From Bacilli bacterium (GTDB taxonomy: Bacteria; Bacillota_I; Bacilli_A; RF39; UBA660), in assembly GCA_036653735.1 (NCBI GenBank), contig JAVVTI010000001.1, positions 8,881 through 72,880 of the forward strand: a DNA stretch of 64,000 nt. The letters are read 5' to 3'. Of this stretch, positions 1,416 through 20,624 are shown in pieces (positions within the stretch are counted from its first letter, which is position 1; each line of letters starts with the position of its first letter). The notes under the pieces are model-generated. The model had not been told where the DNA came from, did not search any database, and saw only the letters and a list, made by a program, of their open reading frames with translations. A program made the position numbers and the translations under genes.

Positions 1416-1715
1416 TTAGTCAAAATTAGCTTGCATATGAGCCTCAACTAGAGCGACCACTAATTTTTGTTCAATTTTTCCTAATTTTGATTGAGCTAAA
1501 TTTTCAATCAAAAAATCCACATCAAGAGGGTAATCTTTTGTAACATCTTTTGTATAGATAAACTCACCGTTACCGCCATAGGTAGATAAGTATTCTTTTT
1601 TGCTCTTAGCAGGTGTGATGGTCTTAAATACACTTTTCCCATCGTCGATTACGCTTTTAAATAATTTCATTTTTACGCCTCCTCTTTTTAATAAAAAACT
1701 AGTAAGTTTTCGCAC
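1416..1715 (-). CDS. Hypothetical protein
   Basis: 99-aa ORF. No motif recognised. Confidence 0.3.
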   Translation of the reverse strand: MRKLTSFLLKRGGVKMKLFKSVIDDGKSVFKTITPAKSKKEYLSTYGGNGEFIYTKDVTKDYPLDVDFLIENLAQSKLGKIEQKLVVALVEAHMQANFD

Positions 1716-2679: not shown

Positions 2680-2691
2680 GAACACTTGTTC
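2680..2691. promoter_or_regulatory. Candidate LexA (Cheo / SOS) box, GAACACTTGTTC
   Basis: Perfect GAAC-N4-GTTC dyad matching the Firmicute LexA consensus. The same 12-mer (one mismatch) recurs at 1297-1308, and its reverse complement at 13084-13095. Confidence 0.35.
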
Positions 2692-3146
2692 TAGTATCGT
2701 TTAGGCTTGAGCACTCCAATTTTCCCATCGTTTGTTATTTTTACCACATCAAACCCTTATATTATATACGTTTTATATTTTATGATGAATATTTATCCTC
2801 ATTCATTACATCTATTTAATCAAGTTTTTTATTTTTCCTCTTATCATATCTGTAAAACCTATATTATGATGTTTATCCATCATCTTTATATAACAAAACC
2901 TAATCATTCTATGTAAACATGTTACCGTTATACCTAATTGGTATTAAAATGTCTATTTGCCCCTTTTAAATGCGTTGTATGATAATGTAAACTAATAAAA
3001 CCCTACACATTTTTTGTATAAGATTTTATTTTTATTATATATTAATTTTATTTTACTTTTGTGCTTATCTTTTTATCTAAAATATTTATAAATTTTCGAT
3101 ATTTTATTAATTGTAATTGTAATAGACATTTTTTATCTCTTCTTTT

Positions 3147-3485
3147 TCAGTTTGTTTTATTGTGTGGATTTGACCTAATATAATAAATTGCGATAATTTT
3201 AGTCGCTTTATTATCCTCACAATTTATTTCAGCATTTTCATATTTATATTTTATTCTTTTATGTTTAATTGAGTATTCTCCAAATAACATAATATCAGAA
3301 TATATAAAATCATCTTTAATATATTTATCTTTTCCTAATACTTTACCAATTAGAATTTCTTTTCCATTTTTATTAGTTGAAATAATTGGAACATCATAAA
3401 TCATATCGATTAAATTTTGGGGATTTTTTAATTCAATGTTAGAATTTTTTAATGGAATAATTTTCATATCTTTAAATATTTTCAT
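3147..3485 (-). CDS. Hypothetical protein
   Basis: 112-aa ORF at the distal end of the leftward block. Confidence 0.45.
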   Translation of the reverse strand: MKIFKDMKIIPLKNSNIELKNPQNLIDMIYDVPIISTNKNGKEILIGKVLGKDKYIKDDFIYSDIMLFGEYSIKHKRIKYKYENAEINCEDNKATKIIAIYYIRSNPHNKTN

Positions 3486-3566
3486 TTTATTATATCTCCT
3501 TTTAAATATGCCGATTTTTCACCATTTTTTGCTTAAAGTTATATAAAATAAGGGTTAGGGGATTTT

Positions 3567-3620
3567 GAAAGTAAAGATACTCCTTAATATGTACTTATAA
3601 TACAGAGTATCTTTACTTTC
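3567..3620. repeat. Palindromic element, copy A: 16-bp perfect stem, 22-nt conserved loop
   Basis: GAAAGTAAAGATACTC ... GAGTATCTTTACTTTC with loop cttaatatgtacttataataca. Core is about 39/40 identical to 15290-15328, including the loop. Confidence 0.7.
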
Positions 3621-3623
3621 AGA

Positions 3624-4616
3624 TTATTCAATGAATTGTTTGTGAATTAGACACAATATTAAATCTTCAACAAATCTTTCCCTTAAAGCTTGATTCATAC
3701 ATTCCAATTCTTTCGTTGTTAATAATTTATATTGCATATTTGAATTAACGAGTTTTTTGTTTTGTGATAAGATTCTTTTTGCTTCGTGTTTGATACCGTT
3801 TTCTCCATACTCAATATTCCATGCATTAGCATAAATTGGACAATTATATAATTCATCACAATCTTTTAATCTGTCGGACAAAACTTTAAAATAGTCGGTT
3901 CTTATTTCTTTTGATAAATAAATAATATCTTGCAATTTTTTAATGCCGTATTCTTTCATTGTTTTTTTGCGAATATCTAAAAAGATAGAACGTTGATGCT
4001 CATTACAGATATATTCTTTCTGTATATATTTTTTTAAGGTTTCGTTATATTCCATTTTATATAATTTGAATGTGTCGCTATATAAAATTAGGGAACGTTG
4101 CTTTAATGATTTCAATGCGTTGTTCACAATTTCTTTAATTATCTTATCTGTGACATTAAAGAAAATTCCTATGTCACGATATTTATCATTTTCTGAATCT
4201 TCTTTTGTGTAATAAGTAGTCGATTTTGTCGGGATATTATTAATATATTCCCATCTTTTATTATTCTTTGTTTCATAGTAAGTGTTATTGACCATATAGA
4301 AATATTTTGCCATTTCTGAATAAGTCATTGTAACTTTGTGTGTGTTATCTTTTGATAAATGTAAAATTAATAAATCTTCAATATACTCTGTAAATTTTGC
4401 CCTATGTTCTAAAAAAAGTAATTCCTTTTCGTCATATATATTTGTAATTGTTATTTTCCCATAAGACGGAATGATATTCATAAAATTATTTAATATTTTT
4501 AATTGAGCAGTTTTACTACCTTTTTCCAATATAGGTTCTTTTGTGATTTCGCAAAATTCCTCATAAGTTATTGTTTTACCTACATAATCTTGCAAATAGT
4601 TATATGGATTTATCAT
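3624..4616 (-). CDS. Hypothetical protein
   Basis: 330-aa ORF, no family recognised. Tightly packed with the downstream gene. Confidence 0.55.
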   Translation of the reverse strand: MINPYNYLQDYVGKTITYEEFCEITKEPILEKGSKTAQLKILNNFMNIIPSYGKITITNIYDEKELLFLEHRAKFTEYIEDLLILHLSKDNTHKVTMTYSEMAKYFYMVNNTYYETKNNKRWEYINNIPTKSTTYYTKEDSENDKYRDIGIFFNVTDKIIKEIVNNALKSLKQRSLILYSDTFKLYKMEYNETLKKYIQKEYICNEHQRSIFLDIRKKTMKEYGIKKLQDIIYLSKEIRTDYFKVLSDRLKDCDELYNCPIYANAWNIEYGENGIKHEAKRILSQNKKLVNSNMQYKLLTTKELECMNQALRERFVEDLILCLIHKQFIE

Positions 4617-4651
4617 TTTTCTCCTTTTCTATAACATAGTTTTACATTGTT

Positions 4652-5593
4652 TTAAAATAATTTACAACCTTGTTCTTTAAATTTTTCAACTTGTTCTATC
4701 CAATCTTCTTTCGACCAACTAAGTTCTTCCATTAAACATTTTTTACACTTAAATTTATTAATTCCTCTTCCATACATTTTTAAATTCATTGCGACTACAT
4801 CTTTATGATAAACTGACTTTCCACAATAAACACATTTCTTTTTGAAATATTGTTCAGCCAGTTCCTTGTCTTCTAACCCCTTATATTCCATGAATTCTTT
4901 AATCGTTTCAGTGTTTGGAATATCTCTGAGTATTCCTCCGTTCCAATTTGAATGATATTCTGTACAAGTACAATTCATTCTACACCATTTTTCTTCTTGT
5001 TTAAATCCATCTTCTAATATTTTGTGGAATCTATCATATTGTTTAGGATAATAATAACTATCTAAAATCCATGTTGATTTAGTATAGTATGGGCAAGCGA
5101 TATGGCAACCTACCCTTGAATATCCATTTAAATATTTTTTATTAATTGGTATTTTATTATGAATTGTATATAGCCATAATTCTAACTCTGTCCATTTTCG
5201 TATAGGTAGGCAACCTATCCATGATTTATCTTCCCATTGAGGATTTCTGCAAATAGACCCATAATTTGAACGTGTTGAGGATTCTTCATTCCTCATTCCC
5301 ATAATAAAGAGTAAATTATTTATATTTTCAAATCTTTGTAAAGTTCCATTTTCTTTAAAAGTTGAGCAACACCATCGACGAAATCTTAAAGGAGTTCCAT
5401 GTATTTTAATCATATTATAGAAACTTTTATTCTTACCATTATTATCTTTTACTGTTACGATTTCAATATCATTTCTAGCTTTAACTTCTTTATACACATC
5501 TGAACTATCCAGTGTTGTATTATTAAAAATTGGCTTATAATTATTCGTTATTTTTTGCAATAAATATTCTGATAATTTACTATCTTTACCCAT
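4652..5593 (-). CDS. PP-loop ATPase / PAPS-reductase-family domain (DndC/CysH-like). The frame is open about 35 codons upstream with no ATG.
   Basis: PP-loop-like SMGKDS motif right at the annotated start; the upstream in-frame extension reads ...ILTTSMGKDS. Cys-rich C-terminus (CVYCGK ... CKKC). The frame stays open through the (CT)9 repeat into ORF 5646..5975. Confidence 0.55.
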   Translation of the reverse strand: MGKDSKLSEYLLQKITNNYKPIFNNTTLDSSDVYKEVKARNDIEIVTVKDNNGKNKSFYNMIKIHGTPLRFRRWCCSTFKENGTLQRFENINNLLFIMGMRNEESSTRSNYGSICRNPQWEDKSWIGCLPIRKWTELELWLYTIHNKIPINKKYLNGYSRVGCHIACPYYTKSTWILDSYYYPKQYDRFHKILEDGFKQEEKWCRMNCTCTEYHSNWNGGILRDIPNTETIKEFMEYKGLEDKELAEQYFKKKCVYCGKSVYHKDVVAMNLKMYGRGINKFKCKKCLMEELSWSKEDWIEQVEKFKEQGCKLF

Positions 5594-5645
5594 TGATGTT
5601 GTTAAAATACATTGGTAACCTTTTTGAAGAACATAATAATTATAT

Positions 5646-5975
5646 TTAATTTCTAAGACAGAAAGGCTCTCTCTCTCTCTCTCTAATAGATTTCTTTAAT
5701 CTTTGATAGGTTTCTTCCCAAGTTTCCAAATCTTTATTATCAGGTATATCAATTTCTTTATTTTTGTTATGTGTTTTATAATAATAAGAGTGTTCATAAG
5801 TCAAATTATTATATTCTCCAATAACTTTTAATCTACAAATTTTAATTTGTTTTCCATCTTTAGAAAACCCTTTTATAATCATTCTATCTATCCATAGTTT
5901 ATCTTCATCATAATTAGATAAATCTATTCCAAAACTTTTTAACATATTTCTATATGGTTTAAATATCGGTAGCAT
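5646..5975 (-). CDS. N-terminal fragment ORF ending in RERERE, encoded by a (GA)n repeat. Probably the 5' part of the PAPS-reductase-like gene, separated by a frameshift.
   Basis: 109-aa ORF. It stops just past the (CT)9 tract. The downstream ORF's frame is +1 relative to it and lacks its own start. Confidence 0.45.
   Translation of the reverse strand: MLPIFKPYRNMLKSFGIDLSNYDEDKLWIDRMIIKGFSKDGKQIKICRLKVIGEYNNLTYEHSYYYKTHNKNKEIDIPDNKDLETWEETYQRLKKSIREREREPFCLRN
5667..5684. repeat. (CT)9 dinucleotide simple-sequence repeat inside coding sequence
   Basis: ctctctctctctctctct counted directly in the sequence. Adding one CT unit would fuse ORFs 5646..5975 and 4652..5593 in frame. Confidence 0.9.
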
Positions 5976-6015
5976 TTTTCTCCTTTTCTATTCTAATTTC
6001 ATTTTTATACAAATT

Positions 6016-6219
6016 CTAAAAACCGAGTTCGTCTAATGTATTTTTAATTATCTCTATAAATCGTGATTTATATCCCAACTCATTTAGGGTTGCTTCAATT
6101 TCAAAATTATTTTTAATACGTTCATAAATATATTTTGAAAGACCATTTGTATCATAACCATCAATTTTTGTATCCATTGATAACAATTGTAACTTTCCAT
6201 CTTCAATATGATGAGCCAT
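6016..6219 (-). CDS. Hypothetical small protein
   Basis: 67-aa ORF. Upstream, 6220-6471 holds broken in-phase fragments, suggesting a degraded longer gene. Confidence 0.35.
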   Translation of the reverse strand: MAHHIEDGKLQLLSMDTKIDGYDTNGLSKYIYERIKNNFEIEATLNELGYKSRFIEIIKNTLDELGF

Positions 6220-6633
6220 TTATGGAGACAGTACGATAGATTCTTTAACAACTTTAGCATCATGCTCTATGCACGGTGTATAATGTTCTACGTCTGTTTC
6301 TGCTAAAAAATTCCCTTTAAAGACCCAGTATTGAGTAACTTCACGTACTAGGTCTTTTCTGTTCCAAATCCACGCAATGATTTTGTTTTAATAAACTGTA
6401 TTAACCTAGCACCTAATAATCTCGCTAATGGAGATAATAACTTTTCTGCATCTTTTTCTGTATCTACCATAATTTTAATTTACCTTTCTATTTTATCGTT
6501 TAGAGCCATTTAAGCCATTTTAATTCATTAAGCTACAATTTACCGATAGTATCTTTAAAACGGCTGTATAAGGCTCTAAACGTTATGCATTGATGCTCTA
6601 TTATTACTTAATATATTCTTTTTATTTGATAAG

Positions 6634-6918
6634 CTATTTCTTTAAATCTATTTCGTCTATTCTATAATGAAATTTTATTAACCAAATAGGTGATTTATTT
6701 TTGCAAAAATCTTTATTTTCACTTACCTTAAACTTTTCACAAGGTTTATTATCACCCCCCCCATAAATACATTTTTCGCAAATAGCTTTTTCTAATTCTT
6801 TGTTTTTACTTATTATTTCTAGTCTTTCAATTTCTTTTTCTGCTTTTATTCTTTCATAATATGCATATGAAATACGTTCACCATAGGCATTAAATTCTAC
6901 TATCAGATAAATTTTCAT
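6634..6918 (-). CDS. Hypothetical Cys-containing small protein
   Basis: 94-aa ORF. Confidence 0.4.
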   Translation of the reverse strand: MKIYLIVEFNAYGERISYAYYERIKAEKEIERLEIISKNKELEKAICEKCIYGGGDNKPCEKFKVSENKDFCKNKSPIWLIKFHYRIDEIDLKK

Positions 6919-7042
6919 TAAATATTCTCCTTTTGTTTTATTTGTTAATATGATTATATCACTATAAATATCATTTGTCGACTATTATTTTTTTATAAAA
7001 GCAGAATAAGTTATTATAACTTTATTCTGCTTTTAATATAAA

Positions 7043-7567
7043 TTATTTAATGTTTAAATTCAAATTTTCTTGCAATTTAACCCCATTAACTGTTTCTTCA
7101 CTATGCAATTTTAAATAATTTTTAATTTCTGTTTTCATTACATCAGTTTCTTTAATTTTTCTTGTTTTTATAAACTCACTAGGAACTTTTCCAATATCTG
7201 TAACTTCCACTGTAGAAGATTTTCGATAAGATAATTTACATCTGGCATCTTCAAATTTATATTTACCAATTTCTTTCGTGGTACTTTTTAAATAAGTGTC
7301 GAGATAATTTTTTAATCTTGCCGATTTATTTTCATTCACTTTCTGACGTTGTTCTAAAATTAATTTTTCTTGTTTGATTGCGGCTGCATCTGAATTTAAG
7401 TTTTTAATAAAACAAGCAATATTAGAAATTTTCTTATCTAATTCCATTTCAACTTCATCTAGCCGATTTTCTAATTCTTTTCCCTCTAATATTTCTCCGT
7501 CTTCTGTATCAAAGAATCCATCTACTAATGTTTCAAATCTTTCATCAATTTTATATAAGCTTGCCAT
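7043..7567 (-). CDS. Siphovirus Gp157-family protein
   Basis: N-terminal LYKIDERFETL, then IKQEKLILEQR ... RLKNYLDTYL ... KLSYRKSSTVEV. This matches my recollection of the Gp157 family pattern. Confidence 0.55.
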   Translation of the reverse strand: MASLYKIDERFETLVDGFFDTEDGEILEGKELENRLDEVEMELDKKISNIACFIKNLNSDAAAIKQEKLILEQRQKVNENKSARLKNYLDTYLKSTTKEIGKYKFEDARCKLSYRKSSTVEVTDIGKVPSEFIKTRKIKETDVMKTEIKNYLKLHSEETVNGVKLQENLNLNIK

Positions 7568-7570
7568 TTT

Positions 7571-7762
7571 TTATTCTCCTTTTATTTTTTTTAATTCAAT
7601 TTTAGTTAAATTGTTTGTTAAGCTTAATAAACCACAAGGGGATATATCCTCCGTTAAGTCTCTCATTTTATTAGCAAAATCTTTACAATATTCTACGTGT
7701 TCACACTTATAACAACCCATATTATTTTTTTTCTGTGCAATACAAACACAATTCTTTAACAT
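7571..7762 (-). CDS. Small Cys-rich protein, 63 aa, downstream of nrdG
   Basis: CxC ... CxxC ... C pattern. Co-oriented and tightly linked to nrdDG. Confidence 0.35.
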   Translation of the reverse strand: MLKNCVCIAQKKNNMGCYKCEHVEYCKDFANKMRDLTEDISPCGLLSLTNNLTKIELKKIKGE

Positions 7763-7766
7763 TCAT

Positions 7767-8240
7767 TTAGTTCACCCTTTCTGCATATTGATTTTTACTT
7801 GCTAATTTTACCCCTAACAATTTGTTATAAACATTTTTTTCGTTCGGTATATATCTTCCATATTTTATGATTATATTTTTATATGTTCCCAATTCTTTTA
7901 TTTTATCTTCAATTTCTTTTTTATAATAACCTGTATATATGACAATATCATTATCTGTTTTTTGTCTAAATACTTGAATTAAATTATATAAATCATTCCA
8001 TGAATCAAATGGTTCTAACCCACCACAGACAATCGCACTTGTTAAATTATTTTCTAAATATCTATTTACAATTTTATCAGTTGATATTTCAATGTTTGGA
8101 GAGGTTGCCAATTCCCCATTTTGGCAAACCTTTTCTCCACAATCTTTTTCACATTTAAAACTACAATATGGAAAAGCTATAAACATTGATGGTTTTTTGT
8201 AATTACTGAAATCTTCATCAACTAAATTTTTAATTATCAT
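7767..8240 (-). CDS. nrdG: Anaerobic ribonucleotide reductase activating protein (radical SAM)
   Basis: Cys cluster FPYCSFKCEKDCGEKVCQN resembling the NrdG radical-SAM cluster. Size 157 aa. Start overlaps the end of nrdD. Confidence 0.75.
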   Translation of the reverse strand: MIIKNLVDEDFSNYKKPSMFIAFPYCSFKCEKDCGEKVCQNGELATSPNIEISTDKIVNRYLENNLTSAIVCGGLEPFDSWNDLYNLIQVFRQKTDNDIVIYTGYYKKEIEDKIKELGTYKNIIIKYGRYIPNEKNVYNKLLGVKLASKNQYAERVN

Positions 8241-10149
8241 TTTTCATACCGGCATAAGAATACCACTGTCTTGTATTAAATTCTTTTTTCCTATCTTTTG
8301 AATATGAACGTACAGGCTCTAAAAATCCTACAATTCTTTGGTAAGTATCCATTACGTCACCACCACAAGTTGGACAAATATCTGTTCCCACAAATCCATG
8401 GTGGTTTGAACATTCATTAATTTTTGTGTTGAAAGCAAAATAAATAACTCCCGATTCTGCTATTTTATTTAACATTTCCCAAGCAACTTCTTCATTCGGG
8501 AAATTTTGTTCAATATTAATATGAGCAATTGCACCGCCTGAACATTTTTTATCTAAAATTGACGCAGTTCTAAGCTTTTCTTTAATCGTACAATTTTCTG
8601 ATAGTGGAATCCACTGGTTAGAATAAATGAATTTATCATTTTTTTCGTATAGCAAATTATCTTTTTGGCATAATATGACTGCGGCTCGTTCAGCTGGAAC
8701 ACTTTCAATATTTAATGAATATTTATCTGTAAAATTGTCTTTAATATTATTTAAAACATCAAATATATCACTAGCAAAATTCATACCATCTTCTGTATAA
8801 TATACATTTCCAAATTCATCTTTTTCAGTAAAACCAAAAGATTCAACAACTTCATACAATCCTAAAATTCCAATTGTATTATATTGCTTACTAAGTTCAA
8901 CACCTCCGTCACAATAATTTGGCAACAATCCTTTTTCAATATTTCTTGTAATAATTCCTCGAATAATATCTAATGTTTTACAACATAATATAGTTCTCTT
9001 TTTTAATAAAGCTAAATATTTATTTCTATCAAAATTTGTTTCATATCCAATTCTCATTAAATTGATAGTATTGACTTTAATTGAACCAATAGACAAAGCC
9101 GTACCACCGATAGAATTAATAAATCCGTCTAGTTTGTCGAACCCTGATAACAAACGACAACAATTTGATAATACACCAACATTATCACTCATAAAGAAGT
9201 TGCTATCATTCCATTTCATATTATGTTTAGAACACCATCTAGCAAAATCTTCATCTACAAATTTCCCACCTTTATATAATAAACTATACGTTAAAACAGG
9301 AAATGTAAATAAATTGCTACTTCTAATATCCGATACAACTTCCATAAACACTTTTTGGATTTCTATAATTTCGTCAATATAGTCTAATGCAAAAGTGCCA
9401 TCGGGAAATTCAGTTGAACCGAATAATGATTCTAAATATTCTCTGTCAAAAATTGAAACATTTACAAAAGCAGATTGGTCAATTCTAATAAATGGTTGAT
9501 TTAGTCTAAAAATAAACTTTTGAAAACTTTGTTTTAAGTAATAATCATTATTTTTGATTACATCGCCATTTTCACAATCTTTCTTCCAAAAATAAAAACT
9601 CCATAATAATACGTTTGGTAAACCACAAGCACCCGAACTTCGATTACTCATAAATGAAATAAATTCAATTACATCATCAAAGAATGTGGTTAAATGTTTT
9701 GGAGGTTGCTTATTATAATCATCTAAGAAGAATAACCCCTCTTTTGCTAATCGAGTTAAGTCGAACGCATAGCAATATGGTAAATAAGAACTTGTAGGTG
9801 CATCATGTAAATAAAACCCACCATTATATTCTGTTTCTAACCATTCCTTTGAAGTTTTTAACCCATACTTTTTCTTCATTTCATAAAATATTTTATTAAA
9901 CGCAAACAACTTATCTTCTGACTTTCCTTTTTCTGATATCATACTTCTGATATCTTTGTGTTTTGCGTTTGCGTTTGAATCAATCGTTGAATCAGCAACA
10001 TTCTTATCAACAAATCCTTCTATAAAATCTGAAAAATTTAATTGTGATTCATGGAAACCATTTAATATCTCAAAATCTTCCCCATACTTATTGCTAACTG
10101 TTTCAAAAGCTTTTTCAAAATCCTTGTTCATTTTAATTGGTATTAACAT
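8230..10149 (-). CDS. nrdD: Anaerobic (class III) ribonucleoside-triphosphate reductase
   Basis: 639 aa. C-terminal glycyl-radical region QRIVGFL and Zn-ribbon CPTCGGD, as typical of NrdD. Confidence 0.85.
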   Translation of the reverse strand: MLIPIKMNKDFEKAFETVSNKYGEDFEILNGFHESQLNFSDFIEGFVDKNVADSTIDSNANAKHKDIRSMISEKGKSEDKLFAFNKIFYEMKKKYGLKTSKEWLETEYNGGFYLHDAPTSSYLPYCYAFDLTRLAKEGLFFLDDYNKQPPKHLTTFFDDVIEFISFMSNRSSGACGLPNVLLWSFYFWKKDCENGDVIKNNDYYLKQSFQKFIFRLNQPFIRIDQSAFVNVSIFDREYLESLFGSTEFPDGTFALDYIDEIIEIQKVFMEVVSDIRSSNLFTFPVLTYSLLYKGGKFVDEDFARWCSKHNMKWNDSNFFMSDNVGVLSNCCRLLSGFDKLDGFINSIGGTALSIGSIKVNTINLMRIGYETNFDRNKYLALLKKRTILCCKTLDIIRGIITRNIEKGLLPNYCDGGVELSKQYNTIGILGLYEVVESFGFTEKDEFGNVYYTEDGMNFASDIFDVLNNIKDNFTDKYSLNIESVPAERAAVILCQKDNLLYEKNDKFIYSNQWIPLSENCTIKEKLRTASILDKKCSGGAIAHINIEQNFPNEEVAWEMLNKIAESGVIYFAFNTKINECSNHHGFVGTDICPTCGGDVMDTYQRIVGFLEPVRSYSKDRKKEFNTRQWYSYAGMKNDN

Positions 10150-10366
10150 TTTTTTTCCTTTCCATAATGTATTTTACAATTTCTGACCTGTCTAATATTT
10201 TTCCATCAATTTCAGCAAATGGGGCTGACATAATTTTATTCTCTTTTGCAACTTTCAAAATAATTTGTTCGTCTGTAATTAATTCAAAATCAATTGATTC
10301 TTTTTTTAGCATTTTTTCTAAAACAATACAACTTGGACAATGTGTACTATAAAATTTCATTTTCAT
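10133..10366 (-). CDS. Glutaredoxin-like protein (NrdH-like redoxin)
   Basis: MKMKFYSTHCPSC ... contains a CPSC thioredoxin-fold motif. AGGAGGTG RBS 5 nt before this ATG; the ORF-track start at 10429 is probably too long. First gene of the operon with nrdD and nrdG. Confidence 0.65.
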   Translation of the reverse strand: MKMKFYSTHCPSCIVLEKMLKKESIDFELITDEQIILKVAKENKIMSAPFAEIDGKILDRSEIVKYIMERKKNVNTN

Positions 10367-10400
10367 ATTTTCACCTCCTAACATTGTTATATCAAAACTA

Positions 10401-10429
10401 ATTATATCATAGCATTTTAATATTGTCAA
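10401..10429 (-). promoter_or_regulatory. Consensus sigma-A-type promoter, TTGACA-N17-TGaTATAAT, for the grx-nrdD-nrdG operon
   Basis: Minus strand reads TTGACA atattaaaatgctatga TATAAT. -35 at 10429-10424, -10 at 10406-10401, about 35 nt upstream of the RBS. Confidence 0.6.
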
Positions 10430-10564
10430 GATATTTATGTTATTTGTATTAGTCGATTTAAGCTACGTTTTAGTTATAGTGGCACAATTTATTACCTATG
10501 TACTTTAAGTATCTTAAAATGGCTAGAAATGCGTCACACAGTGTTCTAAATGCTATCTTCTAAC

Positions 10565-10747
10565 CTAACAAAACAACTTCTTAACTAAAACACCATATTT
10601 AATCAAAGAAAATAATAATATCAGTAAAATTAGAACAATTGGAATTATAATGGAAAACATTATAAATATAAATTTATTCATAAAATTATTCTTTTTCTTT
10701 TTTAACTTCATTTTTTTATAACCTCTTTTTGCTTCACAAATATGCAT
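10565..10747 (-). CDS. Small hydrophobic (membrane) protein
   Basis: 60 aa with a long hydrophobic stretch, IIIPIVLILLILLFSLI. Confidence 0.3.
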   Translation of the reverse strand: MHICEAKRGYKKMKLKKKKNNFMNKFIFIMFSIIIPIVLILLILLFSLIKYGVLVKKLFC

Positions 10748-10917
10748 TTTAGAAAATGTATTTCATCTTCTAAATCAAAACTTCCAAAACTTGTAAAATA
10801 ATCATTCTGAATTTCATATAAACCATAACATAAATTATCTTCTTTGCATTCATTTATTTCATAGGCTTTATCTACAGTAAATAGTTTGTTATCTGATTCT
10901 GTACAAATATATTTCAT
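10708..10917 (-). CDS. Hypothetical protein
   Basis: 69-aa ORF, co-oriented with the block. Confidence 0.35.
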   Translation of the reverse strand: MKYICTESDNKLFTVDKAYEINECKEDNLCYGLYEIQNDYFTSFGSFDLEDEIHFLKCIFVKQKEVIKK

Positions 10918-10933
10918 TTTTCCCCTTTATATA

Positions 10934-11500
10934 TTAATAAATAATTTCTTCCAAACTTCGTGGTGTATAATCCATATAATCTAACATACACCCAACGTTA
11001 TATAACTGTCCTTGATTATATCTATCTTTTGAATATGATTTTAAATCCTTTATCTGTTCAACAAAATATTGTATTAGCTGAGATTCATATCTTTCATGTA
11101 CATGACCATATAACATATAAGTATTTTTACTAGAACTATGATTATAAAACAAAATAGGATAATGACTCATTATGATTTTGTTCCCATTTTCTTTAATCAT
11201 TTTATAATCTGTTATTTCAATAAACTTCTCTGATAATTTTTTTGACATTTTAACAATATCATGATTTCCTCTAATTAAAACTTTCTTGCCATTCAATTTA
11301 TCCAAAATTTCAATCCATACTTTTTCATCTCGACTTAAACTAAAATCTCCTAAAATATAAACAGTATCTTTGTTATTAACTTTTTTATTCCAATTATTAA
11401 TTATTTTGGCTTCCATTTCTTGGACTGTCTGAAAAGGTCTGTTATCAAAACTTAAGATATTCTCATGGCGGAAATGTAAATCTGAAATAAAATAATTCAT
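10934..11500 (-). CDS. Calcineurin-like metallophosphoesterase
   Basis: Motifs DLHF, GDF, GNHD and GHVHE in canonical order. Confidence 0.7.
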   Translation of the reverse strand: MNYFISDLHFRHENILSFDNRPFQTVQEMEAKIINNWNKKVNNKDTVYILGDFSLSRDEKVWIEILDKLNGKKVLIRGNHDIVKMSKKLSEKFIEITDYKMIKENGNKIIMSHYPILFYNHSSSKNTYMLYGHVHERYESQLIQYFVEQIKDLKSYSKDRYNQGQLYNVGCMLDYMDYTPRSLEEIIY

Positions 11501-11519
11501 ATTCGCTCCTTCTTTTTTA

Positions 11520-12221
11520 TTATTTATAAAATTTGTGACCTACGCTATCTGTGAAAATGTATTCTAAATTATTTTCATGCCATTCACTTTCATTACTATA
11601 AAAATAAGTTGCACCACTAGTAGTATCACCTAGTTTGAATACATATTCCAAAGCAAATTTAGTATCTTCGGATATTTCATCTCTAAAATATTCAAACTGA
11701 TTTTTTTCTGTAATTACAGAAATAGGATTATTTGGAAATGTATTATTATCAAGTCTGTTTAGTATAACAGATGCAATATTACATTTTGCGCTAAAATTAG
11801 TTTGGTATGTTTCGGTTTCTATACATTTTTGCATATATAATATTTCTAAATTTGAATAAGAATTATATAGTTCTTTTGTTTCTATTATGTTGTCATATTT
11901 TTCAGATAAACTATTGTATTTTTTCAAGTATTCTATTTTATCAAAATTTTTTAATGGTTCTATTAAAGTTTTTTCATATTCAATTTGTGAACTTATAATT
12001 TCTGTGTTTGTTTTATTTAACAATTCATTTACAGATAATAATGACATATTTTCGTTTTCTAAATCAATTCTGTTATTTTCTAATACCATAATATTATTTG
12101 ATAATTTATTATTTGTATTATTTATATTATTTAATTCATCTAATAAATTTTGACATTTACAAGAAAAAAGTAATACAATAGAAAATTCTATCAGTATAGT
12201 TATTTCTTTAACTCTTTTCAT
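11520..12221 (-). CDS. Exported SleB-like cell-wall hydrolase: signal / lipobox-like N-terminus, coiled coil, Hydrolase_2 C-domain
   Basis: C-terminal NIASVILNRLDNNTFPNNPISVITEKNQFEY ... GATYFY resembles the SleB / CwlJ hydrolase domain. N-terminal hydrophobic segment ending LLFSCKC. Confidence 0.55.
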   Translation of the reverse strand: MKRVKEITILIEFSIVLLFSCKCQNLLDELNNINNTNNKLSNNIMVLENNRIDLENENMSLLSVNELLNKTNTEIISSQIEYEKTLIEPLKNFDKIEYLKKYNSLSEKYDNIIETKELYNSYSNLEILYMQKCIETETYQTNFSAKCNIASVILNRLDNNTFPNNPISVITEKNQFEYFRDEISEDTKFALEYVFKLGDTTSGATYFYSNESEWHENNLEYIFTDSVGHKFYK

Positions 12222-12269
12222 AAACTCCTCCTTTCTTTCTTCTTTTAATTTTTATTCACCCCCTTTAAA

Positions 12270-12297
12270 ATATTATATCAAATACTTTTAATCTTGT
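12270..12297 (-). promoter_or_regulatory. Consensus promoter, TTGACA-N16-TATAAT, upstream of the SleB-like gene
   Basis: Minus strand reads GTTGACA agattaaagtatttga TATAAT. Confidence 0.5.
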
Positions 12298-12548
12298 CAA
12301 CTTAATTATTTTTTTAGTTTATTATTACTGTAATTTTTTTTTATTTAAAATATAAATATTTTTTTACTTATTTAAAATTTACAATTTATTTTGGGGTAAC
12401 CATTAGAGTAATTACAATCTCCATCATGACTACTCTTTACCCTCTCACGTCCATTCTACCACTCAAAATATGCATCATAGGTAAGAATTAGGCATTCTAA
12501 CCCACTACCCCTACAATTGTTAGCCTAACCGCATATATATCTATAATT

Positions 12549-12767
12549 TTACCTATGCTCTCTAATTAGTTTATCAAGTGTTGGTCTGCTTATATTCAAT
12601 TCATGAGCCATATCAACTTTGCTTATCTCTCTATTCATATATTTATTGTAAAAGACGATACAAAACGTATCACATTGTGTAATTATGTAATTATAATTCT
12701 GCATTATCAAATTCATGATGTATAAATCTGTAAAATATAGATTCCGTTTCCGCTTTGTCATATACAA
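12549..12767 (-). CDS. Small HTH DNA-binding protein (C-terminal HTH); possible phage regulator
   Basis: C-terminal ISKVDMAHELNISRPTLDKLIREHR is helix-turn-helix-like. The N-terminal part looks like a low-complexity read-through. It overlaps ORF 12691..12876 out of frame. Confidence 0.35.
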   Translation of the reverse strand: MYMTKRKRNLYFTDLYIMNLIMQNYNYIITQCDTFCIVFYNKYMNREISKVDMAHELNISRPTLDKLIREHR

Positions 12768-12876
12768 ATACTAATTTTCCTTTGAATCCTATTTCAATTC
12801 TAATTGGCTGATATCCATATGTTAAATATACTTTTACTTGTTTAAAATTTACAATTTTGATTTCATTTTCTTTCAT
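12691..12876 (-). CDS. Hypothetical small protein; may be the N-terminal part of a frameshifted regulator
   Basis: 61-aa ORF overlapping the HTH ORF by 77 nt in another frame. Confidence 0.35.
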   Translation of the reverse strand: MKENEIKIVNFKQVKVYLTYGYQPIRIEIGFKGKLVFVYDKAETESIFYRFIHHEFDNAEL

Positions 12877-13083
12877 GTTTTTTGCTCCTATTCTAGCGTC
12901 TATATTCTAATATACATAAGTTGTAGGCTACCCTCTATAAAGTGTCTGCATCAGCTTGTAAACGTGCCTCACAAGGTTATAAACTTTAATTACAGATGAT
13001 ACAAATAATTATTTCATCTTCTTTCTTTTTAATTTTATCATTTATTGGTTCTTTTTATTTTTTAAATTTCACGTAACTAAAAG

Positions 13084-13095
13084 GAACAAGTGTTC
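13084..13095. promoter_or_regulatory. Candidate LexA (Cheo) box, GAACAAGTGTTC
   Basis: Perfect GAAC-N4-GTTC. Reverse complement of the 12-mer at 2680-2691. Lies in the leader region upstream of the regulator genes. Confidence 0.4.
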
Positions 13096-13300
13096 TTATA
13101 TTAACAAATAAATAATATTATTATTGCTAAAATAATTTTTTTAGTTTTATATTTTCCTTTATATTTTATATTTTTTTATAACAAATTCATAATCTAACCA
13201 CATAATTAACCATACATCTTGACAATTATATATTCTAGGTTTTAATTTTGAAAATTTCATATTTTACCTCCTTTTTACTTCCTTTCTATTATTTAATAAC

Positions 13301-13329
13301 ATTATATCACAACATTTTGATATTGTCAA
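13301..13329 (-). promoter_or_regulatory. Consensus promoter, TTGACA-N17-TGaTATAAT, near-identical to the nrd promoter
   Basis: Minus strand reads TTTGACA atatcaaaatgttgtga TATAAT. Followed by AAGGAGG and a 34-aa ORF starting MKFSKLKPR. Confidence 0.5.
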
Positions 13330-13671
13330 ATTATTAAATTATTATTAGTATTAATTATTAGACGATTATAGCCACTTTAGTGCTACAATGGACAATTTAC
13401 CATAGAACCATTTTAAACCGTCAAATCAGCCTAATAAAGATATCTATCAAAGTATTAATAAGCTTTATCTATGTCATTATAATATTTGTATGTAAATATT
13501 CAACTCGTTTTCTAATTAGACTATATGTATTTACTTATTTCTTATCCTCCTTAATCTGTTTGTTTATTTCATATAGTATAATTTAAACTGGGTTAGTATC
13601 ACGTAATTTTTTTTATATCACCATAATCCATTAAGTTACAAATCATTATATAATTATTTTCTAAAAATTCT

Positions 13672-13947
13672 TTAGTTTCTTTCTTTAATATCATAATTTA
13701 TCTCCTTCTTAGTGAAATTATATTCTTTGCATTCTATCCCATTATCATTTAACCATTTTGAAACCAATTGTCTATGACAAAATTTTGATGGTTTTTCATA
13801 ACACATCAAACAAATATTAATATTTTCTACATGAAGAATCCCAATTAAATCATATAACACATCTTTAACAGAAAGATTATTTAAGATATTTTCATTATAA
13901 TTTTTAATATAAGATTCTATGTCATTATTTTCTTTATATGACATCAA
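13672..13947 (-). CDS. Hypothetical protein, possibly a DUF488-like CHR-motif protein
   Basis: 91 aa with CYEKPSKFCHRQLVSKWL. First gene leftwards from the divergent control region. Confidence 0.4.
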   Translation of the reverse strand: MMSYKENNDIESYIKNYNENILNNLSVKDVLYDLIGILHVENINICLMCYEKPSKFCHRQLVSKWLNDNGIECKEYNFTKKEINYDIKERN

Positions 13948-14339
13948 TATTTTATAAGTCGGTGCTAATTTATACTACAATCCATTAAACCAATTCGGTG
14001 TTTTAACACATATAGATATTGGTATAAAATTTTTAGGTAGTTTATTCGCCATTGCAAAGTAACTTATGTAAATCATATTTGTTCCTCCTTTTATTTTTAT
14101 GCATATTTAATTATAATTATTTTTTATATATTTGACTATATAGTATCATTGTGAATATGATTAATCCCTCCTTGTTAATATTCATTTAATGTGGCTTAGT
14201 GATTAAATAACTTACTCTGATTTTTATTATTTCAATACCACCTTTATATATTATAACATATTATATTATATATGTCAAATTATATTATATAAATAATTAA
14301 TAAGTATATAATCATATATAATAATAATATATGCCAGTC

Positions 14340-14670
14340 GGCAGAATTAGGTTAGTAGGGAATGCTTACGGAATGGCTTACACCATTGCCTACACCATTG
14401 GGGGATTTTTGAGTATTTTTTATTCAAAATAATTAATAATTGATTGATATGTAAAAAGGATACATAATCATTTTCATATAGAGTATATAACTAATAAAAA
14501 ATGATTATGTATCCTTTTTACATTATGTGTATTATAATATAATATTATTAAAATTATATGGTATCATTTTATACAAGCTAATCATGTGTATTCAGAATCC
14601 CTTGACCTTAAAAATGGCGTAAGCCATTCAAATGCGTAAGCATTCTCTACTAACCCTACTAACCATTTTA
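14340..14670. repeat. Large imperfect palindrome (arms about 14350-14388 and 14601-14665) enclosing a perfect 25-bp inverted repeat, 14450-14474 / 14498-14522
   Basis: Inner IR TGTAAAAAGGATACATAATCATTTT matches its reverse complement AAAATGATTATGTATCCTTTTTACA exactly. Outer arms share GGTTAGTAGGG, AATGCTTACG and GAATGGCTTAC blocks. Confidence 0.7.
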
Positions 14671-14729
14671 CAATAATGAAAAATAGATTATATAGTATTT
14701 TTATATTATTATATATTATAATATATTAT

Positions 14730-15168
14730 TAAATAGTTATACTTAATAAATAGTTATATTTAATAATATATTATAACTAACTTATATACTTAATATAATA
14801 TATAATACTTGTAGTTTTAATTAAGTTCAAGTTCGCTGACGTAATAAAATAAATTATATGGGTATATCTCAATCCTGCTACGCAGTCTTTCGATATAAAC
14901 ACCCATATAATTTATTTTATTTTTGTCCTGAAATGTTTTTTCATTTTTATAAATAAGTACACTCAAATGCCACCTTACGGTGTCCTTTTCGTAGACGTAC
15001 TTATTTATAAAAATTAAAAAAATTCCAGTTTATTCCAGTTTATTATTATTATTATAATATATAGTTATATCTTATTATTATTATTATATGTTTATTATAA
15101 TATATTACATAGTTATATGAATTTATTTATTATTATAATAATATATAACTATTTAATATAACTATTTA
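14730..15168. repeat. Iteron-like 12-mer TAAATAGTTATA: two direct copies at 14730-14758, two inverted copies at 15144-15168, extra ATAGTTATA copies at 15061 and 15111. Region also holds 17-21-bp inverted repeats (14842-14920, 14944-15013) and tandem CCAGTTTATT x2
   Basis: Read directly from the sequence. The repeats flank palindromes in a 1.2-kb non-coding region between divergent operons. Confidence 0.6.
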
Positions 15169-15286
15169 AAGTAATTAAGATAAAAAAGATAAAAATAAAA
15201 TTATAATTTATATAATATTAAAATACCCGTTTTTTTAGATAAATTGACTCAAACCTATATAAATCAATGGGTACAGAGTTTTTGAA

Positions 15287-15334
15287 TATAAAGATACTCC
15301 TTAATATGTATTTATAATACAGAGTATCGTTATA
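15287..15334. repeat. Palindromic element, copy B (paralog of 3567-3620)
   Basis: AAAGATACTC cttaatatgtatttataataca GAGTATC. Same stem and a near-identical 22-nt loop. Sits about 85 bp upstream of the rightward consensus promoter. Confidence 0.7.
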
Positions 15335-15414
15335 TTCAGACAATTTAGCTAATTGTGTATGAAATACAAACAATTTAAAAAATAAAAAGAAATATGAATT
15401 ATTGTATTATATTA

Positions 15415-15443
15415 TTGACAAGAAAAATAAATTGTGATATAAT
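15415..15443 (+). promoter_or_regulatory. Consensus promoter, TTGACA-N17-TGaTATAAT, for the rightward operon
   Basis: TTGACA at 15415-15420, 17-nt spacer, TGaTATAAT with TATAAT at 15438-15443. An RBS and ATG follow at 15486. Confidence 0.6.
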
Positions 15444-15485
15444 AATTTTAAGTTTAATAATAGACAAAGAAAAGGAGAATAAAAT

Positions 15486-15845
15486 ATGAGTGAATTATTA
15501 AAAGTGTTAAAAATAGATTTTGAAGAACAAACTGTATCGGCTAGAGAGTTGTATGAAGAAATAAATAATGGGAAAGAACGATTTAGTAAATGGTTTGACA
15601 GACAATTAAAATTTGGATTTGTAGATGGTGAAGATTTTACAAGTGTACTAAAAAGTACGGTTGTAAATAATGGTGCAAATAAACCGTTACAGGATTATAA
15701 TTTATCTATTGATATGGCAAAACAAATTTGCATGGTTCAGAAAACTGATAAGGCAAGAAATATTAGGCAACAGCTTATTGATTTAGAAAAGTCATGGAAT
15801 ACTCCTGAACAAGTAATGGCACGAGCATTAAAAAATGGCAGATAA
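15486..15845 (+). CDS. AntA / AntB-type antirepressor N-terminal domain protein
   Basis: TVSARELYEEI ... RFSKWFDRQLKFGFVDGEDF matches the AntA-domain pattern. The RBS AAGGAGAA precedes it. Confidence 0.55.
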   Translation: MSELLKVLKIDFEEQTVSARELYEEINNGKERFSKWFDRQLKFGFVDGEDFTSVLKSTVVNNGANKPLQDYNLSIDMAKQICMVQKTDKARNIRQQLIDLEKSWNTPEQVMARALKNGR

Positions 15846-16194
15846 AACAATAAATTCATTAAAACTAGAAATTGAAGGACAAAAACCTATGGTTGCTTTT
15901 GTAAATATGGTAGTTAATGCATCTAATGCAATTGATATGGGTGAAATGGCTAAATTATGTGCTAAAGATGGAATTAAAATTGGAAGAAATAGATTATTTG
16001 AAATTTTAAGAGAAAAGGGGGTATTAATGAGTAATAATATTCCGTATCAAAGACAAATTGATAATGGCATATTTAAAGTTGTTGAAACAATAAAAAGCAA
16101 TTTTTATGGTGACCAAGTATTTTGTAAAACATTAGTAACTGGAAAAGGACAAATTAAAATTGTTGAGTTGTTACGTAAAGAATTTGACAAATAA
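15835..16194 (+). CDS. KilA-C (phage antirepressor C-terminal) domain protein
   Basis: IGRNRLFEILREKGVLM ... IPYQRQIDNGIFKVVET ... TLVTGKGQ is KilAC-like. Start overlaps the upstream ORF by 11 nt in the +1 frame, next to an A6 run. Confidence 0.6.
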   Translation: MADKTINSLKLEIEGQKPMVAFVNMVVNASNAIDMGEMAKLCAKDGIKIGRNRLFEILREKGVLMSNNIPYQRQIDNGIFKVVETIKSNFYGDQVFCKTLVTGKGQIKIVELLRKEFDK

Positions 16195-16418
16195 TTTTTT
16201 GTGTGATATAATTAAGTCATACTTAGAAAGGAGGTATATAAGGTGAAAGATGAACTATACAGTTGGAATAAATATGATAGACAATTTAAGTCTATTGGTG
16301 ATAGATTAAATTATGAAAAGTATGACGAAAGAGATTCTGAATATGATTATAATGATTGTGAAGAAACAGAAGAAGATTATTAAAATTTATTCAATATTAT
16401 GTGTAAGGGGGTGAATAA

Positions 16419-20455: not shown

Positions 20456-20624
20456 TAAAGAATTTTTAACAATTGACAAAACAGGTGTTCTCGATGAAAA
20501 TGAAAACGGAGAATTAATATTGTATATTGAATTGAAAGATGTTAGAAAAGAATACAATGTTGTGGAACTATTAAAAAGAATGTTAGGTTCAACGGTTCAG
20601 ATTAAATCTGTAAATGAGGGATAA
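20442..20624 (+). CDS. Hypothetical small protein
   Basis: 60-aa ORF overlapping the previous stop. Confidence 0.3.
   Translation: MTNCDKEFLTIDKTGVLDENENGELILYIELKDVRKEYNVVELLKRMLGSTVQIKSVNEG

Follow-up and report, generated by a model that had tools for sequence, protein, structure and literature searches.

A covarying hairpin family, most likely leaky terminators or RNA-end protectors, at early-operon ends in a group of uncultivated Bacilli phages

Early mRNAs of phage T7 contain RNase III processing sites (R sites), and replication origins of the SPP1 type come as an oriL/oriR pair. Early RNAs of the B. subtilis phage SP82 are RNase III targets (Panganiban and Whiteley, 1983, as cited in PMC4838370). 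T4-type phages have numerous PeSLs (promoter-early stem-loops), composites of a sigma-70 promoter with a stem-loop that flank single ORFans (Arbiol et al., 2010; PMC2839356). The element described here is a pair of near-identical hairpins of ~54 bp each, copy A and copy B, in a phage window, i.e., the whole 64-kb stretch of DNA that was analyzed. They belong to a hairpin family of uncultivated Bacilli phages that appears, from sequence comparisons, to have been passed down together with the gene for a 330-aa winged-helix protein and that most likely closes an early operon, either as a leaky terminator or by protecting the RNA end.

Two palindromic copies had been reported in an earlier note on this DNA, and both were located where it placed them. 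Their cores (3573–3611 and 15290–15328) share 38 of 39 bases. A search of the 64 kb with the 39-nt core AAAGATACTCCTTAATATGTAYTTATAATACAGAGTATC gave exactly two hits, both on the same strand, and the copies are thus in direct orientation; shuffles give a chance expectation of 0. The 22-nt "loop" searched alone with ≤3 mismatches likewise has only two occurrences in the window, so the search for further copies suggested in that note returned just A and B.

Copy A (3566..3621, assigned to neither strand) has a perfect outer stem of 17 bp, in which 3566–3582 pairs with 3605–3621; inside it are a 2x2 internal loop, a shorter helix of 5 bp (one mismatch) and an apical loop of 6 nt. Copy B (15283..15338, likewise without strand) has the same architecture with a stem of 16–17 bp containing one C.T/A.G mismatch at stem position 9; relative to A, it has two compensatory pairs and one apical-loop difference. 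The long stem first described as 16 bp in A is present but one pair longer, and the 22-nt loop with one differing base proves partly paired: the difference is single, as had been said, and lies in the apical hexaloop, where it is the sole core difference between the copies. Inner and outer parts together form 25-nt arms, 88% complementary, around the 6-nt loop. Folding energies on the two strands are -26/-25 kcal/mol for copy A and -20/-19.5 kcal/mol for copy B, with z-scores of -5.5 to -8.3 for both copies.

Read as minus-strand (gene-sense) RNA, the inner hairpin is GAUACUC...GAGUAUC (-9.1 kcal/mol) followed by UUUACUUUC, and the A-rich arm upstream is its mirror on the opposite strand. The full 16–17-bp stem is followed by AAAAUCC on the minus strand and by AGAUUAUUC on the plus strand, neither of which is a U-run, and a consensus terminator scan flagged neither copy A nor copy B. 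The clear terminators of this phage consist of an A-run, a stem and a T-run, have related stems (AAAGGATA...) and stem energies of -8.7 to -14.8, as compared to -9.1 for the inner hairpin of A. The initial view that the element is "not just a terminator" is thus correct insofar as the window hairpin, having no T-run after its full stem, is not a textbook terminator; several hairpins of relatives are, however, terminator-like.

Copy A begins 3 nt past the stop codon of the 330-aa gene (3624..4616, minus strand), i.e., at the 3' end of that gene, as originally noticed, and in related phages, too, genes of this family have the hairpin at their 3' end or close to it. The protein is predicted to have tandem winged-helix domains; its fold matches are of the generic winged-helix kind and assign it to no particular family. 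The last strong early promoter upstream of copy A lies at 6953..6981 on the minus strand (TCGACA-17-TGATATAAT) and is preceded by a canonical terminator at 6996–7035; the transcription unit begun there ends at copy A. No minus-strand consensus early promoter was found left of 6953 in the promoter scan, which puts copy A at the end of the early block. No dedicated promoter is apparent for gene 3147–3485, which directly follows A, and read-through past copy A is therefore required.

Copy B is situated ~1 kb upstream of the first leftward consensus early promoter (14250..14278, minus strand), on the same strand, and borders a gene-free, A+T-rich divergent region (14279..15282, no strand). The rightward consensus early promoter (15415..15443, plus strand) starts ~78 bp to the right; B had been correctly placed upstream of it, but the distance from its end to the -35 hexamer is ~78 rather than ~85 bp. 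The scan found no promoter transcribing copy B on the minus strand. The two copies, which had been described as bracketing the leftward early block, do lie at its borders, but leftward genes run on past copy A, so that A ends the strong-early-promoter block and not the leftward arm. A TnpB gene at 20.9 kb is the only transposon-type gene found.

The similarity between the copies extends well beyond the hairpins. The likeness in ~20 bp of upstream flank mentioned in the earlier note is real but was under-called, as the homology comprises ~165–190 nt (~3500–3663 vs. ~15215–15380, in ungapped and gapped alignments), including 112 ungapped nt at 79% identity. The right flanks match at 30 of 43 positions (background mean 13.5; P about 5e-6), and the flanks overall are 70.5% identical (55/78); at this flank identity, ≤1 difference in 39 has P = 2e-5. 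The full repeat unit A (3500..3663, minus strand) takes in ~40 nt from the 3' end of the 330-aa gene, then the hairpin, then a spacer of ~65 nt that reaches the ribosome-binding site of gene 3147–3485 downstream. Unit B (15215..15380, minus strand) contains a decayed remnant of the gene 3' end (15339–15380, about 70% identical to A, with no intact gene), the hairpin and a diverged spacer without ribosome-binding site. Copy B is thus a relic of segmental duplication, since both its flanks, including the gene remnant, are homologous to those of A.

Homologous hairpins are present in five more phage lineages, after the 330-aa winged-helix gene family or at the end of its operon. In L092-95, L096-97, L102, L104, and L111, the hairpin begins 0–9 nt past the stop codon of the 330-aa homologue. 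In L098 and L091, additional genes separate the homologue from the hairpin, which is found in the intergenic gap after the last of them; the hairpin therefore tracks the transcript end or gene boundary and not the 330-aa gene itself. Hairpin ends are terminator-like in L104 (...GUGUAGUUUUUUUAUUUU) and L091 (...AUUUGUUUUUGA), and UUUUGAA follows the stem in L092 and L096, where a non-coding stretch of 1.1–1.3 kb, comparable to that beside copy B, comes after the hairpin. In L111, the hairpin is located at a convergent junction with a separate strong terminator ~110 nt downstream. In L098 and L102, the next gene starts 20–40 nt past the hairpin and a U-run is absent, so it cannot be an efficient terminator there. 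The spacer between the arms is 22, 23, or 25 nt among homologues. Family members share the pattern TCTGAATAT – variable stem – C – partly paired, A/T-rich interior – AAG – G – complement of the variable stem – ATATTCA. TCTGAATAT and CTCTRTAT...TTAAGG are kept across phages whose protein is just 46–58% identical, which hints, at the sequence level, at some sequence-specific recognition, for which a plain terminator would have no use. The hairpins of relatives are thus only in part the generic terminators with unrelated loops that would have spoken against a conserved element: they are homologous and occupy the same position, several are terminator-like, and their interiors are related yet non-identical.

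The hairpin structure is under selection; it is not a chance palindrome, and its stems covary. Among window copy A, window copy B and the copy of strain L101, double compensatory changes occur in 4 of 21 pairs, and 96.8% of cells are paired, vs. 30–51% with a shifted partner. Across the seven family members, compensatory changes are seen in 10 of 16 stem pairs and 92.9% of cells are paired, which was reached by 0 of 500 shuffles; a separate count gave 90 of 96 paired cells, equalled by 2 of 720 arm permutations. Wobble pairs are not biased to one strand (five G.U on the sense strand vs. four C.A), and the pairing thus favors neither strand, nor RNA over DNA.

Strain L101 is 93% identical to the window, and the left block is highly mosaic between strains. 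The L101 hairpin differs from window copy A at 12–13 of 54–55 positions, two "loop" positions included, with pairing largely kept; the rate (13/55 vs. 6.4% outside, P = 3e-5) is four times the local one, and the "loop" positions without variation form the inner helix. The argument that loop conservation indicates a sequence-specific function does not survive this comparison. Hairpin distances are 6/54 between window A and window B, 8/54 between L101 A and window B, and 12/54 between window A and L101 A, while the corresponding distances in the downstream flank are 29/70, 29/70, and 4/70. Outer stem and preceding AATTGTCT in L101 match B, and its flanks match A. Because the L101 A hairpin has changed fast and has a B-like outer stem, the A/B identity probably reflects exchange between copies and not strict sequence constraint. 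Gene conversion or ectopic recombination between A and B, and not a need for every base, may keep the copies near-identical.

The favored reading, held with roughly even confidence, is an RNA stem-loop at the operon end, acting as a weak bidirectional terminator or 3'-end protector. The stem-loop would mark the 3' end of an early transcription unit, and copy A would close the unit from promoter 6981, the last one with a consensus early promoter. The inner hairpin followed by UUUACUUUC, and the A-rich arm mirroring it on the other strand, suggest intrinsic termination or attenuation that is bidirectional but weak or leaky, and the full 16+5-bp helix may protect the 3' end of the upstream mRNA. 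Counting against termination, terminator loops are usually far smaller than the 22-nt interior, and with no U-run past the full stem, the outer 9 bp would have to serve as the U-tract. Copy B would be the leftover of a segmental duplication or rearrangement that placed the gene 3' end, hairpin and spacer at the border of the divergent control region; there, it may shield the rightward early promoter from transcription coming out of the non-coding region, or alternatively lack a function of its own.

The same structure could act as DNA, the palindrome (cruciform, single-strand hairpin or duplex) being the binding site of the adjacent multi-winged-helix protein, either as an origin/initiator pair with two origins in the manner of SPP1 oriL/oriR, where the A+T-rich non-coding region beside copy B would unwind, or as an autoregulatory or roadblock site. 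The hairpin adjoins the 330-aa gene in five lineages, the non-coding stretches past it in L092, L096, and window copy B (1–1.3 kb) are A+T-rich and repeat-rich, base and interior motifs are conserved across distant phages, and wobble pairs are without strand bias; this reading is nevertheless unlikely, given the genes that intervene in L098 and L091, the variable arm spacer, ill-suited to a rigid dimer on B-DNA, the compensatory changes between A and B within one genome, and the generic fold matches. A pair of OL/OR-like operators for a phage repressor, as proposed in the earlier note, is extremely improbable. The genome does have a pair of near-identical palindromes, of which one lies near the divergent promoter region, and the left block encodes HTH and winged-helix proteins, but neither copy overlaps a promoter (B is ~78 bp upstream of the -35 at 15415 and ~1 kb from promoter 14278, and A is intercistronic), each copy is a single site in direct orientation, stems covary even between A and B, arm spacing varies (22/23/25 nt), the sequence changes fast between near-identical strains, and neither an integrase nor a CI-like module, or CI-like repressor gene beside either copy, was found.

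Quite improbable is also processing by host RNase III, which would cut the ~21–24-bp coaxial duplex with its internal loop, splitting a polycistronic early mRNA and leaving a protective 3' hairpin in the style of T7 and SP82 early sites, with no terminator role. In its general shape, a helix of 16 + 5 bp (with ≤3 more flanking pairs) interrupted by an internal loop, the element suits such an enzyme; it lies between cistrons, and in the window, L098, and L102, transcription must read through it; SP82 provides a precedent (PMC4838370). However, several family members have U-runs at operon ends, where processing is unneeded, copy B is outside every predicted transcript, and the likeness to the T7 and SP82 sites is architectural only. 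A small antisense RNA, which had been among the first candidates, is very unlikely. It would be a mostly-hairpin RNA of ~75 nt, similar to lambda OOP, made from a weak plus-strand promoter in the shared left flank, with the TATATAAA box at 3540–3547 and 15256–15263 as -10 and the hairpin also as terminator. A and B have this box without any difference, ~20 nt ahead of the hairpin, L101 has TTGCCA-17-TATAGA with a better -35 hexamer, and the plus-strand stem reaches 19 bp through a U.G pair. The promoter-like hexamers are, however, weak (3–4/6 in the window) and went unreported in the scan, unlike the perfect-consensus promoters of this phage, L098, L102, L104, and L111 have not kept the box downstream of the hairpin, and an Rfam search of the element gave no match. 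Recombination sites delimiting a mobile or exchangeable 11.7-kb module, either att-like, as also once considered, or PeSL-like linkers for homologous shuffling, are a very doubtful proposition. Direct repeats flank the strong-early-promoter block, the chimeric L101 hairpin indicates sequence movement between A and B types, the left block is mosaic, and stem-loop cassettes of T4-type phages lead to shuffling and mini-circles (PMC2839356). On the other hand, protein scans turned up neither an integrase nor a recombinase, TnpB being the only transposon-type gene, the window has no third core copy, the central 6 nt are not identical in A and B, two copies without adjoining promoter are unlike PeSLs, no contig ends at the hairpins, and none of the relatives compared lacks or gains 3567–15334 as a unit.

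As an operon-end stem-loop, the element resembles the bidirectional Rho-independent terminators of Firmicutes phages in its A-rich arm, G+C-containing stem and U-rich arm, palindromic on both strands, and in its position directly past a stop codon at the end of a transcription unit; the window stems are related to the phage's own clear terminators, and some family members have true U-runs. It differs from them in that their loops have 3–8 nt, vs. a 22–25-nt interior with its own helix, in the window copies having no U-run past the full stem, in read-through being required in at least three lineages, and in copy B standing where no transcript is predicted. Lambda nutL/nutR boxB sites are also two near-identical hairpins with one loop base differing, each tied to one early-transcription arm, but they lie downstream of PL and PR in opposite orientations, whereas the copies here are direct repeats with B upstream of the rightward promoter, no boxA-like partner and a far longer stem. 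As in RNase III hairpins (T7 R sites, SP82), a family conserved within the genome occurs between early genes, with a helix of about two turns broken by an internal loop, and the element would leave a 3'-terminal protective hairpin; the sequences are unrelated, and here there are two copies, one outside any predicted mRNA. With PeSL cassettes (PMC2839356), the element shares conserved stem-loop terminators repeated directly around non-essential early genes in a mosaic region, and evidence of sequence exchange between copies, but it has only two copies, no adjoining promoter and a span of 11.7 kb, in an unrelated Gram-positive siphovirus-like phage.

The palindromic element occurs in two near-identical copies, copy A at 3566-3621 and copy B at 15283-15338, and both sequences are exactly as the earlier note gave them. 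The 39-nt core, AAAGATACTCCTTAATATGTA(C/T)TTATAATACAGAGTATC, is found twice in the 64 kb, both times on one strand and at a distance of 11,717 nt, and has no match in shuffled sequence. When the 22-nt interior between the GATACTC and GAGTATC arms was searched alone in the window, with up to three mismatches, again only these two places were found. The repeat itself is longer than had been described: a repeat finder returns 112 nt at 79% identity (3552-3663 vs 15269-15380), and by gapped alignment it reaches from about 3500 to 3663. Between the right flanks of the two copies, 30 of 43 positions agree, where random window pairs agree at 13.5 on average (P about 5e-6), and this similarity indicates that the flanks are truly homologous. 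Flank identity is only about 70%, a rate at which a single difference in 39 core bases has P = 2e-5. Hairpin folding on the two strands gives -26/-25 kcal/mol for A and -20/-19.5 kcal/mol for B, with z between -5.5 and -8.3. The 22 nt taken earlier for a loop are not free, as the palindrome runs inward to form 25-nt arms, 88% complementary, around six bases, and the sole core difference between A and B lies within this six-base apical loop. In the helix, 16 bp and 5 bp are separated by a 2x2 internal loop, and up to 3 flanking pairs are added on the plus strand.

The window is an A+T-rich phage genome (about 27% G+C). It matches, at 99.9% identity, a 72.9-kb contig from a MAG with the label Malacoplasma sp. 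as well as contigs that carry the label Bacilli bacterium. Genetic code 4, prompted by the Malacoplasma label, was ruled out, TGA serving as a stop codon and TGG encoding Trp; the phage uses the standard code (code 11). A MAG record labelled Malacoplasma sp. (L081, GCA_036647175.1) has gene calls with in-frame TGA codons at 15786-16352 and 20390-20761. This record was evidently annotated with code 4 though the phage uses code 11, and its contig is probably phage sequence that was sorted into a Mollicutes-like MAG.

From a gene-free region at 14.28-15.41 kb, genes are transcribed outward in both directions. Perfect TTGACA-N14-TGaTATAAT promoters are present leftward, on the minus strand, at 14278, 13329, 12300, 10429, and 6981, and rightward, on the plus strand, at 15415, 16184, and 19357. 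The leftward genes encode a cell-wall hydrolase, a phosphoesterase, NrdD, NrdG, a Gam-like protein, a PAPS reductase, and a 330-aa protein of unknown family (3624-4616, minus strand). Copy A starts 3 nt past the stop codon of the 330-aa gene and is the last element after promoter 6981, with no further consensus early promoter downstream. Since the leftward genes run on past A and none of them has such a promoter, A closes the early-promoter block and not the leftward arm. Directly left of copy A and the next gene (3147-3485) is a second gene-poor, A+T-rich stretch of 1.4 kb (1670-3147), which includes a strong bidirectional terminator at 2560-2601; a comparable non-coding stretch is found directly 3' of the hairpin in a relative (L096), followed by a gene with the same start sequence.

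Copy B borders the gene-free region on the right, with about 78 bp between it and the -35 hexamer of rightward promoter 15415. To its right the sequence aligns in frame, but in decayed form, with the last ~14 codons of the 330-aa gene, and to its left it aligns with the spacer downstream of A, without a ribosome-binding site. Copy B is thus what remains of a duplication that brought along the end of the gene, the hairpin and the spacer. A promoter scan found no minus-strand promoter able to transcribe it. The gene-free region (14279-15282) has three further very long hairpins, at 14449-14523 (26-bp perfect stem, 23-nt loop), 14716-14776 (20-bp all-A/T stem, 21-nt loop) and 14936-15021 (25-nt arms, 36-nt G+C-richer loop), and inverted GGTTAGTAGGG-type motifs around 14340-14440 and 14600-14660; it may hold an origin of replication or non-coding RNAs.

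Several other features were recorded in the window. The ribosome-binding site and first codons of antA (15466-15527) are repeated at 39531-39592 (73% over 62 nt), where a Bro-N gene of the structural region begins (39551-40252). The rightward early/middle region includes a TnpB gene (IS605 OrfB / Cas12f-like TNB) at 20931-22022, directly followed by ~130 nt of G+C-richer sequence that could be an omega-RNA or the right end of a TnpB element, and a tRNA is present at 22393-22463. Between tail/lysis genes, a 33-nt inverted repeat (97% complementary) surrounds ~500 bp (53605-54171), and this segment could be invertible or inserted.

The A site of a sister strain is found on a 1.5-kb contig (L101) that matches window 3449-4929 at 92.9% identity. 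Between the L101 hairpin and window A, 13 of 55 columns differ, compared with 6.4% outside the hairpin (P = 3e-5), and 14 of the 16 outer pairs are still paired, including G-C to C-G and A-U to C-G switches. Two changes fall inside the supposed loop, each at an unpaired position. This comparison is decisive against the argument of the earlier note that loop conservation speaks for a sequence-specific function. The outer stem of the L101 hairpin and the preceding AATTGTCT are of the window copy B type, and its flanks are of the copy A type. Hairpin distances are 6/54 for A-B, 8/54 for L101-B, and 12/54 for A-L101; those of the downstream flank are 29/70, 29/70, and 4/70, respectively. These distances are most simply explained by a transfer of sequence from one site to the other, through gene conversion or through ectopic recombination at a recombination-prone palindrome, and the element would then show concerted evolution of its two copies. 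With such exchange, A and B in the window would owe their near-identity to it and not to constraint on each single base. Near the end of the 330-aa gene, L101 has a 10-nt insertion (L101 1240-1280 vs window 3640-3660) leading to an earlier stop (320 aa vs 330 aa), from which the last ten codons seem dispensable.

A second strain variant (L110) has a B site identical to that of the window, but it says nothing on conservation, because the whole surrounding 1.43-kb stretch is without differences. Compared with window 6463-18186, this variant shows strong strain mosaicism, 14401-15829 being 100% identical and the neighbouring early genes 85-94%; its nrdD allele is replaced (591 aa vs 639 aa, no DNA match), and an extra gene of 156 aa is present.

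No close relatives were found in INPHARED, IMG/VR, JGI metagenomes or GTDB genomes. INPHARED megablast with 3400-3800 as the query gave no match, and exact or degenerate core patterns had 0 matches in IMG/VR, JGI metagenomes and GTDB genomes. The one GATACTC-N22-GAGTATC in a relative's locus (L011) is about the chance expectation. Relatives sought through NrdD comprised 80 IMG/VR loci that share only the nrd cassette and have no homologue of the element, and those sought through a 904-aa protein (L085-87, 53-58% identical) were too distant for DNA comparison. For the 330-aa protein, a large protein collection contains 18 homologues, all from uncultivated phage contigs. This protein belongs to no Pfam or PHROG family and has predicted tandem winged-helix domains (pLDDT 80).

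DNA was compared around ten of the 18 homologues and one IMG/VR locus. A long hairpin begins 0-9 nt past the stop codon of the homologue in L092-95, L096-97, L102, L104, and L111. A covariance model built from copies A and B and L101 detected an additional member in L098 (49 bits, E = 5e-8), 3' of a methyltransferase gene inserted after the homologue, and a second, seven-member model detected one in L091 at the operon end, 3.5 kb past the homologue (E = 0.001). The family pattern is TCTGAATAT, a variable stem, C, an A/T-rich interior of 22-25 nt, AAG, G, the complementary variable stem, and ATATTCA. In the seven-member family, 10 of the 16 stem pairs have double compensatory changes. Paired cells amount to 92.9%, vs 37-55% with the partner slid, a value reached by 0 of 500 shuffles; in a separate count 90 of 96 cells are paired, which 2 of 720 arm permutations reach. 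Position and covariation together show that this family of elements is real and structured and that it accompanies the operon end. Gathering-score and E-value searches of Rfam 15 returned only chance-level miRNA-type hairpins (at most 23 bits vs gathering scores of at least 53).

The favoured reading takes the element as an RNA stem-loop at a transcript end and as a new family within a well-known class of signals. In each lineage it is located where a transcript ends or at a gene boundary, and inserted genes lie upstream of it. The end of a transcription unit is its location for copy A, L092, L096, L111, and L091, but not for copy B, L098, and L102. The stem-loop contains G+C and is stable (full A -25 to -26, B about -20 kcal/mol), and the inner GAUACUC...GAGUAUC hairpin of A, at -9.1 kcal/mol, is within the range of the clear terminators of this phage (-8.7 to -14.8). 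These have an A-run, stem and T-run as in the element (2560-2601, 6996-7035, 23031-23062, 36781-36811, 41753-41788, and 55722-55763), and several have stems related to that of the element (AAAGGATA...). The inner hairpin is followed 3' on either strand by UUUACUUUC (6 U of 9), whereas the full stem is followed by AAAAUCC and AGAUUAUUC on the two strands, with no U-run, and a consensus terminator scan of the window listed neither copy. Among the relatives, U-runs are clear in L104 and L091, UUUU follows the stem in L092 and L096, and L111 has a convergent junction. Against termination count the unusually large interior, the read-through required for the next gene in the window, L098 and L102, and a separate strong terminator ~110 nt further on in L111. 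The element is therefore at best a leaky terminator or attenuator, and its main role may be 3'-end protection or RNase III processing. The latter may occur judging from the modelled fold, the 16 bp, 2x2 loop and 5 bp corresponding to the shape of an RNase III substrate (about two turns of duplex RNA with an internal loop). The wobble counts favour neither strand as the acting one, with 5 G.U pairs on the sense strand vs 4 C.A pairs. Copy B may insulate the rightward promoter from plus-strand transcription leaving the non-coding region, or alternatively may be a passive copy maintained by conversion.

Among other readings, an operator pair of the OL/OR type had been proposed for a phage repressor. 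Copy A is intercistronic with no promoter nearby, and copy B is ~78 bp from the -35 at 15415 and ~1 kb from 14278; the strain that is 93% identical has 12-13 changes in 54-55 positions, the A/B differences are compensatory, and the arms are spaced by 22, 23 or 25 nt. The operator idea fails on position, covariation between copies in one genome, variable arm spacing and fast change between strains. Att-like sites delimiting a module were likewise proposed. Homologous exchange between A and B does seem to happen, going by the sequence comparisons, but no integrase or recombinase turned up when ~50 proteins encoded in the window and in the adjoining 6 kb on its left, with small and structural ORFs only partly included, were scanned against Pfam and PHROG, and the only transposon-type gene among the scanned proteins is TnpB (20931-22022). 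As for the block between the copies, the only relative spanning part of it (L110) has a mosaic form, and no relative without the 11.7-kb block was found among the very few in databases. The shared TATATAAA box might give rise to a small plus-strand RNA, for which promoter support is weak. Finally, the hairpins may not be a transcript-end signal but, extruded as a cruciform or in single-strand hairpin form, the cognate site of the winged-helix protein encoded next to them, which has three domains. The two sites, one at the gene and the other beside an A+T-rich non-coding region, would then co-evolve as a pair, e.g., as a dual replication origin or a fork/transcription roadblock, a type undescribed for Bacilli phages; this is considered unlikely.

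The observation that opened this analysis is real, and most of the interpretation attached to it is unsupported. Near-identity of two repeats in one genome is no evidence of sequence-specific function. If the stem-loop indeed marks a transcript end, the case is an ordinary one, in which a conserved operon-end stem-loop was duplicated and its copies were kept alike by exchange; only the cognate-site reading, if true, would open something new. The element can be used as an early/middle boundary marker in annotating this uncultivated phage group, and the seven-member family with its covariance model could provide the seed for a motif family, RNA or DNA, of gut Bacilli phages.

Several known systems were compared. 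The end hairpins of IS200/IS605 elements were rejected, as the core is confined to A and B and absent from the flanks of the TnpB gene at 20.9 kb. A DGR template/variable repeat or a retron was rejected because no reverse transcriptase is among the scanned proteins, the A/B differences are not restricted to adenines, and the coding sequence common to A and B is only 40 nt. The ends of public contigs do not coincide with the hairpins, which speaks against terminal-repeat or packaging boundaries. The apparent exchange between A and B recalls the PeSL cassettes of T4-type phages (PMC2839356). Unlike PeSLs, the element is without an adjoining promoter, none of the consensus type being inside the repeat unit and the nearest being 78 bp away for B and more than 3 kb for A, and it has two copies only. 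Recombination between A and B may have occurred, with indirect evidence in the chimeric L101 hairpin and the discordant hairpin and flank distances.
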